The notes below the pieces were generated by a model that was not told where the DNA came from, ran no database searches, and worked only from the letters and a program-made list of their open reading frames with translations. Below, piece by piece: positions 11,551 to 29,472 of a stretch of 48,950 nucleotides of DNA; positions within the stretch are counted from its first letter, which is position 1; each line of letters begins with the position of its first letter. The stretch comes from Actinomycetota bacterium (GTDB lineage Bacteria; Actinomycetota; Acidimicrobiia; Acidimicrobiales; Ilumatobacteraceae). Both the position numbers and the translations under genes were made by a program. The DNA lies in assembly GCA_005800965.1 (NCBI GenBank), contig SYEA01000048.1, positions 1 to 48,950 on the forward strand, written 5' to 3'.

Positions 11551-12965
11551 GAACCGACACCCAAAAGTTCGCGCGCTACTTGAGCGTCGCTAAACGCAAT
11601 ATCTCGCCCAGCGATGGTCTGCACAGTTTCATGACCCCGCCCAGCAATGATGACCACGTCACCACTGCCGGCCTGAGTGCATGCCATTGCTATCGCTTGA
11701 CGACGATCTGCTTCAGCGACCACTTTGTTCAGATGCGTCGGAGCAATGCCGGCAACGATCGCGTCGATGATGGCCTGCGGATCTTCGTGACGCGGGTTAT
11801 CGCTTGTGACGATGACGCTGTCGGCTGAAATTGCTGCCGCACCCATGTCTGCACGCTTGGTTGCATCACGGTCGCCGCCACAACCAAACACCACAATGAC
11901 TCGTTGGTCGGTCACGGCTCGGGCCGCGGCAATCACGTTGCGCAACGCCTCGGGGGTGTGGGCGTAATCCACGAGCACTGCAAAATTTCCGGTCGCATTG
12001 ACATTCTCGAATCGCCCTGGAATCTGGGTGAGATTGCCAAGCCCGGCTGCGATATCGCCGACAGGAATACCAATCTCGGCAGCAGTAGTTGCAGCTGCCA
12101 ACGCGTTGAGCACATTGAAGTCTCCTCCAACGGTGCACCAAATTCGCGCACCCCGCCACGAAAAAGCACTTCCGGTGGCACCCACCGCCACGTCAGTTGC
12201 ATCACTGCGGCCGTAGGTCACCACTGCGACATCACAATCCTCCGCAATTTTTTGTCCAAATGCGTCATCGCGATTGATGATGGCGCGGCTGGTGTAGTTG
12301 GACGAGAACAAACTTGCCTTGGCGGCGAAATAGGCATCGTGGGTGCGATGAAAATCGAGATGGTCGTGACCAAGGTTGGTGAAGGTTGCGGCAGCGAACT
12401 GCATTCCAGCCACACGCTGCAGGGCGAGCGCATGCGACGACACTTCCATCACCACTGCCTTTGTCCCTTTACTGCGCTCATCTGCCAAGGTGCGCTGCAA
12501 CTCGGCTGCTTCTGGTGTGGTGCGGGTGCCCGAGAGCGTTCCGAGCACGGTCGTGCGCTGGCCATGTTGGGTGAGTATCGCCCCCAACATGTGGGCGGTG
12601 GTGGTCTTTCCGTTCGTGCCGGTAATACCGACCACCGTCAAATCGCGACTGGGGTGGTCATGAAATGCTGCGGCCAAGACCCCCGTTGTCTGACGAGTAT
12701 CCGACGCGATGATTTGTGGTACGTCGAGGTTCAAGCGACGATCGACGAGCAGCGCCGCTGCCCCGTTGGCAACGGCCTCTCGTGCGAAATCGTGACCATC
12801 GTGTTGTTCGCCGCGCAAGCAGCAAAACAACGTGCCCTGCTGCACTGCGCGGCTGTCGCTCGTCACATCGGTGATGGACACGCCTACGGCACCCTCCACG
12901 CTCAACGCGGGCGAAGCCGATTGCATGTCATCCACTCGCGCAAGTAGCCCGCCCAACGTGAGCAT
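11547..12965 (-). CDS. murE: UDP-MurNAc-L-Ala-D-Glu--2,6-diaminopimelate ligase
   Basis: GITGTNGKTTTAHM P-loop and a DYAHTPEAL block. The DNPR motif (VTSDNPRHEDP) is diagnostic of meso-DAP-adding MurE rather than MurF. ATG 12965 (MLTLGGLLARV) lies just after the ftsI stop; the track ORF extends to 13022. Confidence 0.92.
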   Translation of the reverse strand: MLTLGGLLARVDDMQSASPALSVEGAVGVSITDVTSDSRAVQQGTLFCCLRGEQHDGHDFAREAVANGAAALLVDRRLNLDVPQIIASDTRQTTGVLAAAFHDHPSRDLTVVGITGTNGKTTTAHMLGAILTQHGQRTTVLGTLSGTRTTPEAAELQRTLADERSKGTKAVVMEVSSHALALQRVAGMQFAAATFTNLGHDHLDFHRTHDAYFAAKASLFSSNYTSRAIINRDDAFGQKIAEDCDVAVVTYGRSDATDVAVGATGSAFSWRGARIWCTVGGDFNVLNALAAATTAAEIGIPVGDIAAGLGNLTQIPGRFENVNATGNFAVLVDYAHTPEALRNVIAAARAVTDQRVIVVFGCGGDRDATKRADMGAAAISADSVIVTSDNPRHEDPQAIIDAIVAGIAPTHLNKVVAEADRRQAIAMACTQAGSGDVVIIAGRGHETVQTIAGRDIAFSDAQVARELLGVGS

Positions 12966-25495: not shown

Positions 25496-26176
25496 GTGGG
25501 CACGCGCATTCTGACTGTCGAAGACGACGAACGAATTCGTGCTTCAGTGCGCTTGGCGCTCGAAGACGAGGGTTGGACGGTCGACGAGGCTGCGACCGGC
25601 GAAGACGCAGTCGAGTTATTTGTCGCCAACCCTGCAGATGTGGTGTTGATCGACATCATGTTGCCGGGCATCGACGGTTTCGAGTTGTGTCGGCGAATCC
25701 GCGCCAAAAGCAGCGTGCCCATTGTGATGGTCACAGCGCGAAGCGACACCCACGACGTGGTCGCTGGGCTCGAAGCCGGCGCCGACGATTACCTCACCAA
25801 ACCGTTCGCCCCCAAAGAACTCTCGGCGCGCATTCGCGCCCTCCTGCGCCGCATCCGCCCGGCAGATCACGTGCATTCGACCCTCACCTTCGGCGATTTG
25901 GTGATTATTCCCGAAGAAGGACGTGTCACGGTGCGTGGCGACGAGGTGCTGGTGACCAAAACCGAGTTCCGGCTGCTCTGCGTACTTGCCGAGAACCCAA
26001 GCGGTGTGTTCAGCCGAGAGCAACTATTGGAAAAGGTCTGGGACTACGACTACTTCGGCGACGGACGTTTAGTGGATGTGCACGTGCGGCGCCTGCGCTT
26101 GAAGATTGAACTCGACCCAGCGAACCCTCGTCACGTGGTCACCGTGCGCGGCCTCGGCTATCGCTTGCAGTCGTGA
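25496..26176 (+). CDS. OmpR/PhoB-family response regulator
   Basis: Receiver domain (ILTVEDDERI; phospho-Asp context VLIDIMLPGIDG; conserved YLTKPF Lys). Winged-helix output domain (...LTKTEFRLLCVLA...VTVRGLGYRL). GTG start. Confidence 0.92.
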   Translation: MGTRILTVEDDERIRASVRLALEDEGWTVDEAATGEDAVELFVANPADVVLIDIMLPGIDGFELCRRIRAKSSVPIVMVTARSDTHDVVAGLEAGADDYLTKPFAPKELSARIRALLRRIRPADHVHSTLTFGDLVIIPEEGRVTVRGDEVLVTKTEFRLLCVLAENPSGVFSREQLLEKVWDYDYFGDGRLVDVHVRRLRLKIELDPANPRHVVTVRGLGYRLQS

Positions 26177-27336
26177 CCAGCCCGATTCATCCATCGCGGC
26201 CATCACCTCTTGATTCGCTGCGCGCTTTCGTGCGTCGCCGTCGACCACGGCGCATGGGGGTTCGGTCGCGAATTCTGGCCACGTTCGTCGTCGGCTCACT
26301 GTTGTTGTCAGGCGTGCTGTTTTTTCTCACCTTCACACTCACTCGCACGAACCTGCGGGAGCAAGAGGGCGAACTGGGTTTGAGCAACGATCTCATCAAC
26401 GAGACCCTCAACAGCGTGCGAGCATCATTGATTTTGGCAACAATCATCACGGTGCTCGTCGGGTTGATGCTCGGCATTGTGTCGAGCGAGCGAGTGGTGC
26501 GTCCGCTGGCTGGCGCCGCCAACGCCGCACGTGCCATCGCCGATGGCCGACTTGACACACGACTCGAGCCCACTGACGACCCGGATCTCAACGCCCTCAC
26601 CGAATCGTTCAACGACATGGTGGCTCGTTTGCAGGATCGCGTCGAGCGTGACGCGCGGTTTGCATCAGACGTGAGCCACGAGTTACGTTCACCATTGATG
26701 ACCTTGGCTGCGTCAGTAGAGGTGATGGTGTCGCGGCGCGACGAACTGCCCGAGCGCGGGCAGGCCGCCCTCGACTTGTTGGTTGCCGATGTGGCTCGGT
26801 TCAGCAGTCTCGTTGAAGACCTCTTGGAGATCTCCCGCTACGACGCTGGCGCAGTGCGAATCATGCGCGATCAGTTGCGCGTCGCAGAGTTTGTCGAACA
26901 AGCCGTGCGCGCGAGCACACTCGCCCGCTCGCCGATTCACATCGACCAACGCTGCACAACCACCACATTGAGCGGTGACCGCCGCCGCCTGGCTCGCGTC
27001 GTAGCCAATCTCATCGACAACGCTCGTTTGCACGGTGGCGGCAGTGCTTCAGTGCATGTCTGCCCGGCTGCCGATTCAAACTCCCACGTGTGGATTGTCG
27101 TCGAGGACGCCGGCGAAGGCGTCGTAGACACCGATACTGATCGAATTTTCGAACGTTTTTCGCGCGGTGTGGGCGCCAGCAAACGCGGCGCATCGGAGGG
27201 TGCTGGGCTCGGGCTCGCCCTCGTGCGCGAGCACGTGCGACTGCATGGAGGACGCGTGTGGGCAGAGTCGCGCCGTGACGGTGAGTCGGGTGCGCGTTTC
27301 ATCGTCGAATTGGTCTGCGAGACCGCCGCGCCATGA
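26173..27336 (+). CDS. sensor histidine kinase (two TM helices, about 27-aa outer loop, HAMP, HisKA, HATPase)
   Basis: H-box FASDVSHELRSPL, N-box NLIDNARLHGG, G-boxes EDAGEGV and GAGLGLALV. 4-nt overlap with the regulator gene. Confidence 0.92.
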   Translation: MTSPIHPSRPSPLDSLRAFVRRRRPRRMGVRSRILATFVVGSLLLSGVLFFLTFTLTRTNLREQEGELGLSNDLINETLNSVRASLILATIITVLVGLMLGIVSSERVVRPLAGAANAARAIADGRLDTRLEPTDDPDLNALTESFNDMVARLQDRVERDARFASDVSHELRSPLMTLAASVEVMVSRRDELPERGQAALDLLVADVARFSSLVEDLLEISRYDAGAVRIMRDQLRVAEFVEQAVRASTLARSPIHIDQRCTTTTLSGDRRRLARVVANLIDNARLHGGGSASVHVCPAADSNSHVWIVVEDAGEGVVDTDTDRIFERFSRGVGASKRGASEGAGLGLALVREHVRLHGGRVWAESRRDGESGARFIVELVCETAAP

Positions 27337-27436
27337 CACTTAGACCATGACGACTAGACCATGACGACTAGACCATGACGACTAGACCATGACGACTAGA
27401 CCATGACGACTAGACCATGACGACTAGACCATGACA
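27331..27436 (+). repeat. 14-bp tandem repeat (TAGACCATGACGAC): six perfect copies plus a degenerate copy at each edge
   Basis: Perfect units at 27341, 27355, 27369, 27383, 27397 and 27411. The left partial copy (27331-27340) contains the kinase stop codon. The right partial copy (27425-27436) contains the glpK ATG. ATGs recur every 14 nt from 27333 to 27431. Confidence 0.97.
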
Positions 27437-28939
27437 GCCGGCGCAACTTCCGCAGGTGTAGTGCTGGCCATTGACGCAGGCACCACGGGCGTGCGCACCC
27501 GTGCGGTGTTCGCCGATGCGCGACCCTCGATCGCCGACTATCGCGAGTTCACCCAGCACTACCCACGACCAGGCTGGGTCGAACACGACGCCGAAGAAAT
27601 TTGGCAGGCAGTGCGCGCCACTATGCAATCAGTGTGTGCGCAAATCAACGAGCCGATTGCCGCGATTGGTATCACCAATCAACGTGAAACCGTGGTGGCC
27701 TTCAACCGCCGTACGGGTGAGCCGCTCCATCGTGCGATTGTCTGGCAGGACCGCCGCACGGCTGCCCGCTGCGACATGCTCACCGACCAGTTGTCGGTCG
27801 TTCGTTCAACAACGGGATTGGTACTTGATCCATATTTTTCAGGTTCAAAAATGGAGTGGTTGTTGCACAACACCGAGATTGGTAGCAACCCTGATTTGGC
27901 TTTTGCCACGATTGACGCATTTCTCATCCACCGCCTCACCGGCGGTGCGGCGTTTGCCACTGATGTTTCCAATGCGTCACGCACCATGCTGTTTGACATC
28001 CGCGCCTTGCGCTGGAGCCCAGAGATGTGTGCAATGTTCGGTGTCAACATCGATTCGCTACCGCAGGTTGTGCCGTCTAGCGCACGCATCGGGGTGACTG
28101 TTGGTGACGGTGCGATTCCGGCGGGTGTGGCAATTAGTGGTGTTGCCGGCGACCAACAGGCAGCACTTTTCGGTCAAGCGTGCTTTGCAGTAGGCAGCGC
28201 CAAGAACACGTATGGCACCGGCAGTTTCGTGCTGCTAAATGTTGGCACCTCGTGCCCTGCCCCTACCTCGGGCATGCTCACCACCGTTGCCTGGCAACTC
28301 GGCAGCGAGCCGGCGGTGTACGCACTTGAAGGAGCCATCTTTGTGACCGGTGCAGCAGTGCAATGGTTGCGCGACGGCCTCGACATCATTTCTGCGGCAA
28401 GTGAGCTTGGCCCGTTAGCAGAGTCCGTTGCCGACACGGGCGGAGTCGTGCTCGTGCCCGCATTCACCGGGCTGGGTAGCCCCTGGTGGGACCCATATGC
28501 GCGCGGTGCAATCTTGGGCATTACACGCGGCACCACACGGGCCCACATCGCTCGCGCCGTGGTGGAGTCGATGGTGTTTCAAACTCGCGACGTGATCGAC
28601 GCCATGACTCGTGCTTCTGGCGTGGCGATTCGAGATTTGCGAGTCGACGGCGGCGCGGCAGTCATGAACCTGATGCTGCAAATGCAAGCTGACCAGCTTG
28701 ATGTCGACGTGTTGCGGCCAACCGAGTTGGAAACCACGGCCATGGGTGCGGCATATCTTGCCGGGCTGGCCGAGGGTGTTTGGGGTTCAACTGATGACAT
28801 CGCAGCACGATGGGTGCTCGAGCGCCGATTTACACCGAGCGCTGAAAGCGGCACCGGTAAGAGCACCGCCGCAGACCGCGACGAAGCGCATGCGTTGTGG
28901 CTGCGTGGTGTCGAGCGGTCACGCGGCTGGGTGAGTTAA
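27431..28939 (+). CDS. glpK: glycerol kinase
   Basis: VLAIDAGTTGVR, HYPRPGWVEHDAEEIW, ITNQRETVVAFNRRTGEPLHRAIVWQDRRTA, LDPYFSGSKMEWLL and GVAGDQQAALFGQ. All canonical GlpK substrate and ATP blocks are present. Confidence 0.95.
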   Translation: MTAGATSAGVVLAIDAGTTGVRTRAVFADARPSIADYREFTQHYPRPGWVEHDAEEIWQAVRATMQSVCAQINEPIAAIGITNQRETVVAFNRRTGEPLHRAIVWQDRRTAARCDMLTDQLSVVRSTTGLVLDPYFSGSKMEWLLHNTEIGSNPDLAFATIDAFLIHRLTGGAAFATDVSNASRTMLFDIRALRWSPEMCAMFGVNIDSLPQVVPSSARIGVTVGDGAIPAGVAISGVAGDQQAALFGQACFAVGSAKNTYGTGSFVLLNVGTSCPAPTSGMLTTVAWQLGSEPAVYALEGAIFVTGAAVQWLRDGLDIISAASELGPLAESVADTGGVVLVPAFTGLGSPWWDPYARGAILGITRGTTRAHIARAVVESMVFQTRDVIDAMTRASGVAIRDLRVDGGAAVMNLMLQMQADQLDVDVLRPTELETTAMGAAYLAGLAEGVWGSTDDIAARWVLERRFTPSAESGTGKSTAADRDEAHALWLRGVERSRGWVS

Positions 28940-29409
28940 CGCCCGGTCACTTCGAACATGGCCACCATCAAACTGCCCAGCCCAACAAAGAGCGAGAGCC
29001 CCGTGACGATGATGGTCGAGCGAAGGTTGCCAAGGCGTCGCACCTCTTCCTGCAGCGACTCCACACGCTGACTCAGCGCATCAATCCTGGCGTCCAAGCG
29101 CGCGCCAAGCGCATCGATTTGGGCATCCACACGCTGACTCAGCGCATCGATCTTGGTGTCTAAGCGTGCACCAAGCGCATCGATTTTTGCATCCAAGCGT
29201 GCACCAAGTGCATCGATCTTGGAGTCCAGCCGACGCTCTGTCGCTTCAAGATCAGACTTGCGCACCAAGTCCCCCCATCCACTCGGCGGAAGAAAATCAA
29301 TCAACTCATCGGCCACGTCGACACCGATGACTTTTTCCAAAGACCGATGGAGCCGTAGCCGCTTGGCGTCGGGCGAAGGGGTGGATTCTGTCGTTTCGTG
29401 GGTGTCCAT
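28936..29409 (-). CDS. tail-anchored coiled-coil protein built from 11-residue repeats
   Basis: Five consecutive hendecads plus a sixth degenerate one: RLDSKIDALGA / RLDAKIDALGA / RLDTKIDALSQ / RVDAQIDALGA / RLDARIDALSQ / RVESLQEEVRR. A single C-terminal TM helix (TIIVTGLSLFVGLGSLMVAMF) follows, with only 6 residues after it. ATG 29409 chosen; alternative ATG at 29469. Confidence 0.7.
   Translation of the reverse strand: MDTHETTESTPSPDAKRLRLHRSLEKVIGVDVADELIDFLPPSGWGDLVRKSDLEATERRLDSKIDALGARLDAKIDALGARLDTKIDALSQRVDAQIDALGARLDARIDALSQRVESLQEEVRRLGNLRSTIIVTGLSLFVGLGSLMVAMFEVTGR
29035..29232 (-). repeat. 33-bp in-frame tandem repeat (66-bp higher-order unit) inside the tail-anchored protein gene
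   Basis: Plus-strand units at 29068, 29101, 29134, 29167 and 29200. Alternate units are closest to each other: 29068 and 29134 differ at only about 4 of 33 positions, and 29101 vs 29167 are also close. Confidence 0.9.
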
Positions 29410-29472
29410 ATCTACATGTGTGCCTGGCTGCCCAATAATCGGTAAGCAATTTTGGGGCGGCCACGGCATCGC

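Follow-up and report, generated by a model that had tools for sequence, protein, structure and literature searches.

How can a glycerol kinase gene be supplied with ribosomes if the 94 nt that separate it from the sensor kinase gene upstream are filled by a short tandem repeat, and why would a repeat be tolerated at this position? This question is posed by the kinase-glpK junction on contig SYEA01000048.1 (GCA_005800965.1), which stems from a freshwater actinobacterium that a protein-guided scan of species-representative genomes placed among the uncultured Ilumatobacteraceae (Acidimicrobiia). The term window denotes here the whole stretch of DNA that was analysed, 48,950 nt in length. We read the element as a locus-specific variable number tandem repeat (VNTR) with a 14-nt unit that sits on a translationally coupled kinase-glpK junction and preserves this coupling, so that ribosomes would cross it by serial reinitiation; we assign a probability of about 0.55 to this reading.

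The array occupies the entire gap of 94 nt between the kinase stop and the glpK ATG. The kinase reading frame ends with ...GCG CCA TGA, and its stop codon (TGA 27334-27336) is embedded in an ATGA. The variant unit ATGACACTTAGACC is present once and is followed by six copies of ATGACGACTAGACC, after which the next period is already the glpK start, ATGACAGCC... Tandem Repeats Finder (TRF) reported a single array at 27331-27435 (period 14, 7.5 copies, 97% matches, score 194); no other short-period repeat of the window comes close to it in strength. The 14-mer TAGACCATGACGAC is found in six perfect copies (27341-27424) and in a copy with two mismatches (27425-27438), both edges of the array being degenerate copies; none of 100 shuffles reached seven matches to this 14-mer (shuffle mean 0.23). 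The generalised unit RTGACNNNYAGMMCRTGAC matches seven times in the window, always inside the array, against an expectation of zero. The array and the five-codon open reading frames (ORFs) that it contains are as follows.

27331..27438, + strand: 14-nt tandem repeat array (TRF, pattern searches, repeat spacing of 14 found six times)
27333..27350, + strand: mini-ORF 1, ATG ACA CTT AGA CCA TGA (MTLRP-stop), its ATG overlapping the kinase stop
27347..27364, + strand: mini-ORF 2, MTTRP-stop, its start overlapping the stop of mini-ORF 1
27361..27378, + strand: mini-ORF 3, MTTRP-stop
27375..27392, + strand: mini-ORF 4, MTTRP-stop
27389..27406, + strand: mini-ORF 5, MTTRP-stop
27403..27420, + strand: mini-ORF 6, MTTRP-stop
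27417..27434, + strand: mini-ORF 7, MTTRP-stop, its TGA (27432-27434) overlapping the glpK ATG (27431-27433)

The seven ATG codons of the mini-ORFs are thus positioned at 27333 + 14k, and every TGA overlaps the ATG that follows it, the last of which is that of glpK. This chain-like geometry results from the combination of an ATGA in the unit, a period of 14 nt (15 minus 1) and three internal codons that remain open. TRF, pattern searches and direct reading of the sequence consequently bear out in full what the earlier note on this DNA had described, namely a repeat that forms seven ATGA-linked five-codon ORFs in a 94-nt spacer devoid of a Shine-Dalgarno (SD) sequence. All mini-ORF stops in the chain (27333-27434) are UGA codons followed by C and preceded by CCA (Pro). 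The C-terminal end of the kinase also reads Pro-UGA-C in the window allele; Ile, Val or Leu takes the place of Pro in other alleles.

No SD sequence was detected in a motif search of the region 27251-27445 for GGAG, GAGG, AGGA or GGA, and no TANNNT (-10-like) hexamer is present in 27200-27445. A promoter and terminator scan recognised neither a sigma-70-like promoter nor an intrinsic terminator around or within the spacer, and the spacer has no match in Rfam. The start of glpK can be assigned to ATG 27431, as an in-frame TAG is located two codons 5' to it and an ATG is found at the equal position in all relatives; in the relative L017, glpK has no downstream GTG that could serve as an alternative start. 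Given that glpK possesses neither an SD sequence nor a recognisable promoter of its own, its translation probably depends mainly on reinitiation from the kinase gene, with which it appears to share one operon and to be co-transcribed. In those relatives that carry no repeat unit at all, the kinase stop and the glpK start form an ATGA, and hence the classic termination-reinitiation arrangement. Overlaps of -4 nt support termination-reinitiation (PMC12548453), and this type of coupling is nearly gone at a spacing of about 20 nt in E. coli and Haloferax (PMC10666635; review PMC12548453). An untranslated gap of 94 nt would therefore abolish coupling, which argues that the repeat is tolerated because it preserves this coupling.

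How variable is the array in nature? We assembled 42 loci with the same junction through the protein-guided scan of species representatives, a metagenome pattern scan and look-ups of near-identical kinases. They group by unit number as follows.

0 units: L001, L002, L058-L070, L072, L093-94; kinase TGA and glpK ATG overlap directly as ATGA, e.g. GCCATATGACAGCC
1 unit: L073, L081, L089-92; ATGACGACCAGAAC, ATGACGACTAGAAC or ATGACGCCCAGACC
2 units: L003, L071, L074-80, L082; ATGACGACTAGACC GTGACGCCCAGACC
3 units: L056, L083-85, L086, L087-88; four distinct unit orders
4 units: one record without DNA; inferred solely from the glpK call at +56
7 units: the window; ATGACACTTAGACC, then ATGACGACTAGACC six times

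Copy number in orthologous kinase-glpK spacers, the first property that the earlier note had singled out for checking, is accordingly variable, with 0, 1, 2, 3 (4 inferred) or 7 units. The variation is found among close relatives. L056 and the window are 98-99% identical over 3.5 kb, with a flank divergence of 0.7%, and possess three and seven units, respectively, the array of L056 being composed of two copies of ATGACACTTAGCCC and one of ATGACGACTAGACC. L003 (two units) and L081 (one unit) differ by 0.5% in their flanks, L083 (units B,F,G) and L086 (units G,B,B) by 0.7%, and further pairs at 0.3-0.7% flank divergence differ in the number, the order or the sequence of their units. Alleles with one to three units are reproducible over many independent assemblies. 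The array is a fast-evolving VNTR with near-perfect units arranged head-to-tail. In the distant relatives L004, L005, L008, L009 and L017, the junction consists of TAA, 9 nt and ATG.

Several further observations concern the behaviour of this junction. L003 and L074 on the one hand and L081 on the other differ, beyond their unit number, in glpK codons 2-4 (ACA ACC CGC versus ACG GGC GGC). Together with the different unit orders of L083 and L086, these codon differences hint at recombination or gene conversion focused at the junction. Two relatives with about 80% identity, L006 (5136-5260) and L007, carry another tandem duplication at the kinase-glpK junction, with a period of 29 nt (GGTTTCGTCGTAGCGACCCATCCGTCGGC twice); it spans the kinase stop, lengthens the tail of the kinase and leaves a 59-nt spacer without a chain of mini-ORFs. 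The kinase-glpK junction hence seems prone to duplication, and the version present in L006 and L007 does not keep the overlap. The metagenome pattern scan for ATGACGACTAGACCRTGAC returned two contigs, L056 and L057. We rejected the latter as a further case: it is apparently a chance match in which about 24 nt (GATGACGACTAGACCATGACAACC, 11954-11980) are identical to a unit plus the glpK start, and the site consists simply of a stop and a start that lie 3 nt apart. Judging from its translated flanks, which were read by eye, the L057 locus looks like an unrelated alphaproteobacterial ferredoxin-mnmA junction.

Is the chain itself maintained while the units come and go? In every one of the nine distinct alleles that bear the repeat (25 loci), an unbroken [A/G]TGA chain connects the stop codon of the kinase with the first codon of glpK, and zero-unit relatives possess the direct ATGA overlap; the relay geometry that the earlier note had deduced from a single array is consequently shared by all nine of these alleles. 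Among the nine unit variants, TGA is invariant, positions 1, 6-9, 12 and 13 vary, and the sole change of a start codon is from ATG to GTG. The last codon of the kinase points in the same direction. It is ATA, GTA, CTA, TTA or CCA (I, V, L, L, P) and always ends in A, even though such codons are rare in the genes of the window (GTA, 7% of Val codons; CTA, 5.7% of CTN; ATA, 9 of 414 Ile codons). This terminal A is retained even in alleles in which only the first mini-ORF uses it. Taken together, the chain and the pattern of last kinase codons are suggestive of a constraint on the junction, as far as comparison of sequences can reveal one.

These observations lend themselves to the following model. 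Slipped-strand mispairing or unequal exchange between units would add or remove whole units and thereby generate arrays of 0 to 7 copies. Each unit would contribute one five-codon ORF, and the -4 overlap of the zero-unit allele would be recreated at every step, finally with the glpK ATG. Ribosomes that terminate at the end of the kinase ORF and then reinitiate would probably account for most of the translation of glpK; in the window allele, they would have to pass seven successive terminate-and-restart steps. If the efficiency of each step is below 1, the number of units would grade the GlpK:kinase ratio in the manner of a dial, not of an on/off switch. The ribosome relay, and any quantitative effect on GlpK, are what we infer from this arrangement. 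The array would be tolerated, and possibly used, since each unit rebuilds the -4 stop/start overlap.

A number of points weigh against this model. The support that chain conservation lends to it is weakly significant and underpowered: with about 8-10 inferred substitution events, and with about 26% of random changes being chain-breaking, the chance that no chain-breaking change would be observed is p ~0.05-0.09. Positions C5, A10, G11 and C14, which have no role in the relay, are equally invariant, and the conservation of the units owes much to their recent copying. Translation of five-codon minigenes promotes peptidyl-tRNA drop-off in E. coli, where UGA-C and Pro-stop are poor and slow termination contexts; these contexts, in combination with the very short ORFs, could make the array costly or leaky. 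Seven serial reinitiations, each with an efficiency below 100%, could leave very little GlpK. The MIRU-containing (mycobacterial interspersed repetitive unit) senX3-regX3 spacer, the closest analogue of the array, has been reported with promoter activity (PMC4213456). Furthermore, the figure of seven units is derived from a single assembly.

The best-surviving alternative, which is possible in our view and still unlikely, holds that the array is a neutral product of slippage without a role in translation, in which the mini-ORFs arise by simple arithmetic once a 14-mer with an ATGA is copied; glpK would then be initiated independently, without an SD sequence, on an open A/C-rich leader. Since ATGA belongs to the unit that is copied and the period is 14, slippage generates the relay geometry automatically, and selection is not needed for it. 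The RNA of the array fits such a leader: its minimum free energy is -12.8 kcal/mol over 110 nt, its centroid is fully unpaired, it is single-stranded in context too, and the z-score of -5 of the fold is due to self-pairing of the CAUG and CUAG palindromes and does not reflect a stable structure. Such an essentially unstructured leader would make direct initiation without an SD sequence easier. Lineages with no unit and lineages with several units have both survived in nature, and the weak statistics and the equal conservation of the non-relay positions set out above also speak for neutrality. However, the upstream out-of-frame AUG codons lie in the same open context and would compete with the glpK AUG unless ribosomes are handed on. 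Moreover, the lineages nearest to the window keep the junction at -4 or within about 9 nt, the outgroups with TAA, 9 nt and ATG included, with the more distant L006 and L007 having a 59-nt spacer; repeat-bearing alleles retain the rare NNA codon with which the kinase gene ends; and not one of the 25 loci carries a broken chain.

A more ambitious version of the coupling-preserving reading sees the array as a ribosome relay under selection, with copy number as its means of tuning. Ribosomes leaving the kinase ORF would cross n five-codon terminate-and-restart steps in series, each with an efficiency below 1. Slippage would set the ratio of GlpK to sensor kinase in heritable and reversible steps within natural freshwater populations, and purifying selection would maintain the period of 14 and every NTGA. 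We regard this version as doubtful.

It is improbable that the count of seven copies, as opposed to the repeat itself, is an artefact of assembly. Six identical 14-mers (84 nt) are certainly hard for short-read assemblers, the seven-unit allele is known from the window only, and the exact kinase and GlpK sequences of the window are absent from the public collection. Against an artefact stand the arrays of one to three units with distinguishable units that recur across many independent assemblies, the independent three-unit array of the near-identical L056, and the consideration that the usual assembly error is collapse, not expansion.

Still less probable is a function of the array at the level of the DNA, either as an internal promoter or as a row of binding sites, for instance for the adjacent OmpR-family regulator, that would allow kinase-independent transcription of glpK. 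OmpR-family regulators do usually target direct repeats; their tandem sites are phased at about 10-11 bp, to which a spacing of 14 bp is unfit. There is precedent for such elements in M. tuberculosis, where the intergenic MIRUs of senX3-regX3 drive senX3-independent expression of regX3 (PMC4213456) and copy-variable tandem promoter repeats have been described, including those of lpdA-glpD2 (PMC12817950). At the junction studied here, however, the scans mentioned above found neither a sigma-70-like promoter nor a TANNNT hexamer, and the TAG of the unit is lost (CAG) in several unit variants. Scans of the window and of the fetched loci turned up no copy of the motif away from the junction, such as one upstream of the operon, and the zero-unit relatives leave no room for an element of this kind.

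A classic contingency locus in which slippage switches glpK fully on and off, as the M. tuberculosis glpK homopolymer does, is very improbable. The perfect tandem copies are indeed prone to slippage and near-identical strains do differ in copy number, but the repeat lies outside both coding sequences, whole-unit changes can frameshift neither of them, and by the logic of the sequence all observed states from 0 to 7 units keep the kinase, the chain and glpK intact and thus permit a graded effect at most. Of the copy-number-variable switch that the earlier note had envisaged, the variability therefore stands (seven versus three units at about 99% identity), and the binary switch is unlikely. The parallel that it had drawn to the M. 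tuberculosis glpK homopolymer does not hold at the level of mechanism either, as the latter acts through a frameshift inside the coding sequence.

Contrary to the view of the earlier note that no example of such an arrangement had been described, there is a precedent in the MIRUs of the M. tuberculosis senX3-regX3 operon, which are copy-variable and contain ORFs coupled at -4 nt (PMC12548453, PMC3184786, PMC4213456). It was in this two-component operon, in the M. tuberculosis complex, that MIRUs were first described (Supply et al., 1997, cited after PMC12548453, PMC3184786, and PMC4213456), and their -4 coupling has been read as a mode of insertion with minimal effect on downstream expression (PMC12548453, PMC3184786, PMC4213456). 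They are also a natural example of short ORFs that can hand ribosomes to a -4-coupled gene (PMC12548453). The array resembles them in several respects: tandem, copy-variable units separate two cistrons of the same orientation, at least one being a two-component gene; each unit provides a short ORF that runs in the direction of the operon and shares a -4 nt overlap with the ORF on either side; and copy number is polymorphic between strains, here from 0 to 7 units. The differences are equally clear. MIRU units measure about 40-100 bp (77 and 53 bp in senX3-regX3; PMC3184786, PMC4213456), whereas the unit of the array has 14 bp. MIRUs are scattered over some 40-50 loci and are regarded as mobile, whereas the array unit occurs at the kinase-glpK junction only, as judged from a scan of the 48.9-kb window and the fetched loci. 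The array shares no sequence with MIRUs, 14 bp being too short for a meaningful comparison with their consensus, and its host belongs to the Acidimicrobiia, another class of the Actinomycetota than Mycobacterium. Unit size and the lack of dispersal within the window and the fetched loci rule out membership in the MIRU family.

Three further systems invite comparison. In gene pairs with a -4 overlap (Huber et al., 2019, 2023; review PMC12548453), the overlap is exactly the NTGA that is found at the zero-unit kinase/glpK junction, no SD sequence is needed, and each junction of the array in the window is likewise an ATGA; the known cases, in contrast, are single junctions of two real genes, whereas up to eight junctions are chained here via non-functional five-codon ORFs. 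VNTR and contingency loci such as the promoter repeats (PMC12817950) and the glpK homopolymer of M. tuberculosis share with the array the slippage-prone perfect repeats, a copy number that varies between near-identical strains and the vicinity of a carbon-metabolism gene. They exert their effect via promoter spacing or copy number, or by a frameshift in a coding sequence, whereas the array resides in a translated intercistronic spacer and frameshifts neither gene. Leader or "delivery" short ORFs and synthetic bicistronic designs also employ a non-functional short ORF whose stop overlaps the start of a real gene, so that the ribosome is handed over; in contrast to the serial chain considered here, which would be fed by the upstream gene, they consist of a single ORF that usually has its own SD sequence. 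In a survey of viral contigs for ATGA-periodic arrays, none of the 169 period-14 arrays among the matches listed had a gene-chain-gene architecture. The single candidate of this survey, L206, which has a 7-nt repeat, was dismissed, as its flanking ORFs look spurious.

Where did the array come from? In a neighbour-joining tree of 1.2 kb of flanking coding sequence (200 bootstraps), the three-unit L083 lineage is basal within the ingroup (95.5%), the window groups with the main zero-unit clade as its sister (81%), and the repeat-bearing lineages form a clade in 0% of the bootstraps. The identical unit ATGACGACTAGACC is common to all three repeat-bearing lineages. This topology tentatively suggests that the common ancestor already possessed at least one unit, with the proviso that recombination could distort the tree. 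It suggests, equally tentatively, that the ATGA overlap of the zero-unit alleles is derived and would have arisen through a precise 14-nt deletion between ATGAC microhomologies. Slippage between such ATGAC microhomologies is probably also how the array grew in place. The first unit may have arisen either by a duplication of the junction with later divergence or from an ancestral 10-nt spacer between ATGAC...ATGAC. A comparison by eye of the unit with the 3' end of the kinase gene, the 5' end of glpK and the spacer of the outgroup revealed a similarity that was too weak to favour one of the two. The junction itself is probably of secondary origin. In L014 (3935-7922), a metagenome-assembled genome of a more distant member of the Acidimicrobiaceae, the kinase gene overlaps, as ATGA, a gene for a GerMN ("Germane") lipoprotein, behind which lies that of a glpK-like FGGY kinase. 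The lipoprotein gene is absent in the clade of the window, and the kinase of this clade is about 100 amino acids shorter than in those distant relatives. The gene order of L014 hence indicates that the kinase-glpK junction of the window clade was probably created by loss of the GerMN lipoprotein gene.

To our knowledge, the array represents the smallest scale at which a MIRU-like logic has been encountered. It is a MIRU-like design in miniature, outside of the mycobacteria, and it illustrates that repeats which keep the coupling intact can grow between cistrons without harm. If the relay is real, the alleles with 0, 1, 2, 3 and 7 units in identical flanks would form a series from which the efficiency of one -4 termination-reinitiation step can be gauged, and they would show whether post-termination ribosomes can be passed on repeatedly. 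The mechanism of reinitiation (30S scanning, 70S scanning, or RNA unfolding) is still debated (2025 review; PMC12548453). The natural 0-to-7 allelic series is thus an attractive test bed for termination-reinitiation, although the function of the array is putative and the organism uncultured. There is also a lesson for genome annotation: co-oriented genes that are 94 nt apart look uncoupled and may nonetheless be linked by ORFs below the size considered by any gene caller. Even if the array is neutral, it would still help to tell strains apart in a freshwater lineage that is abundant and uncultured.

The genetic neighbourhood of the array, as derived from the ORF list and Pfam, comprises on the same strand the genes for an inositol monophosphatase, the response regulator, the kinase and glpK; the gene after glpK is convergent.

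25496..26176, + strand: OmpR-family response regulator, first gene of the two-component pair (Pfam Response_reg and Trans_reg_C)
26173..27336, + strand: sensor histidine kinase (Pfam HAMP, HisKA and HATPase_c)
27431..28939, + strand: glpK, glycerol kinase, 502 amino acids, last gene of the co-oriented run (Pfam FGGY_N/FGGY_C)

The best NCBIfam match of the regulator is MtrA (264 bits; cut-off 300) and that of the kinase is MtrB (202 bits; cut-off 450). As both equivalog scores fall below their cut-offs, we do not assign the pair to MtrAB, even though these are the best matches. GlpK scores marginally above the cut-off of TIGR01311 (591.5 bits; cut-off 590.35) and above that of NF000756 (603.1; cut-off 498). 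The stop of the regulator gene and the GTG of the kinase gene overlap as GTGA at 26173-26176, and roughly one third of the same-strand junctions in the window have a candidate -4 overlap, which makes stop/start overlaps a usual feature of this genome. The start of the kinase is ambiguous: GTG 26173, with the GTGA overlap, yields a protein of 387 amino acids, and ATG 26254 one of 360. Public calls for near-identical kinase homologues use both starts, the 360-residue version being the one in most public assemblies. According to public gene calls, GlpK has 502 amino acids in repeat-bearing lineages versus 500 in zero-unit ones, and this difference of two residues lies elsewhere than at the N-terminus.

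The window contains other tandem repeats of 33/66 bp at 29060-29228 (TRF scores 161-216), inside the minus-strand ORF 28936-29469. The product of this ORF (177 amino acids) has weak matches to helical-repeat Pfam families of the apolipoprotein, phasin and P10 type, all under their cut-offs; its sequence suggests a protein with 11/22-residue amphipathic repeats, encoded convergently with glpK. BLAST alignments of relatives are shifted at 29060-29228, and the number of repeats may vary there too.

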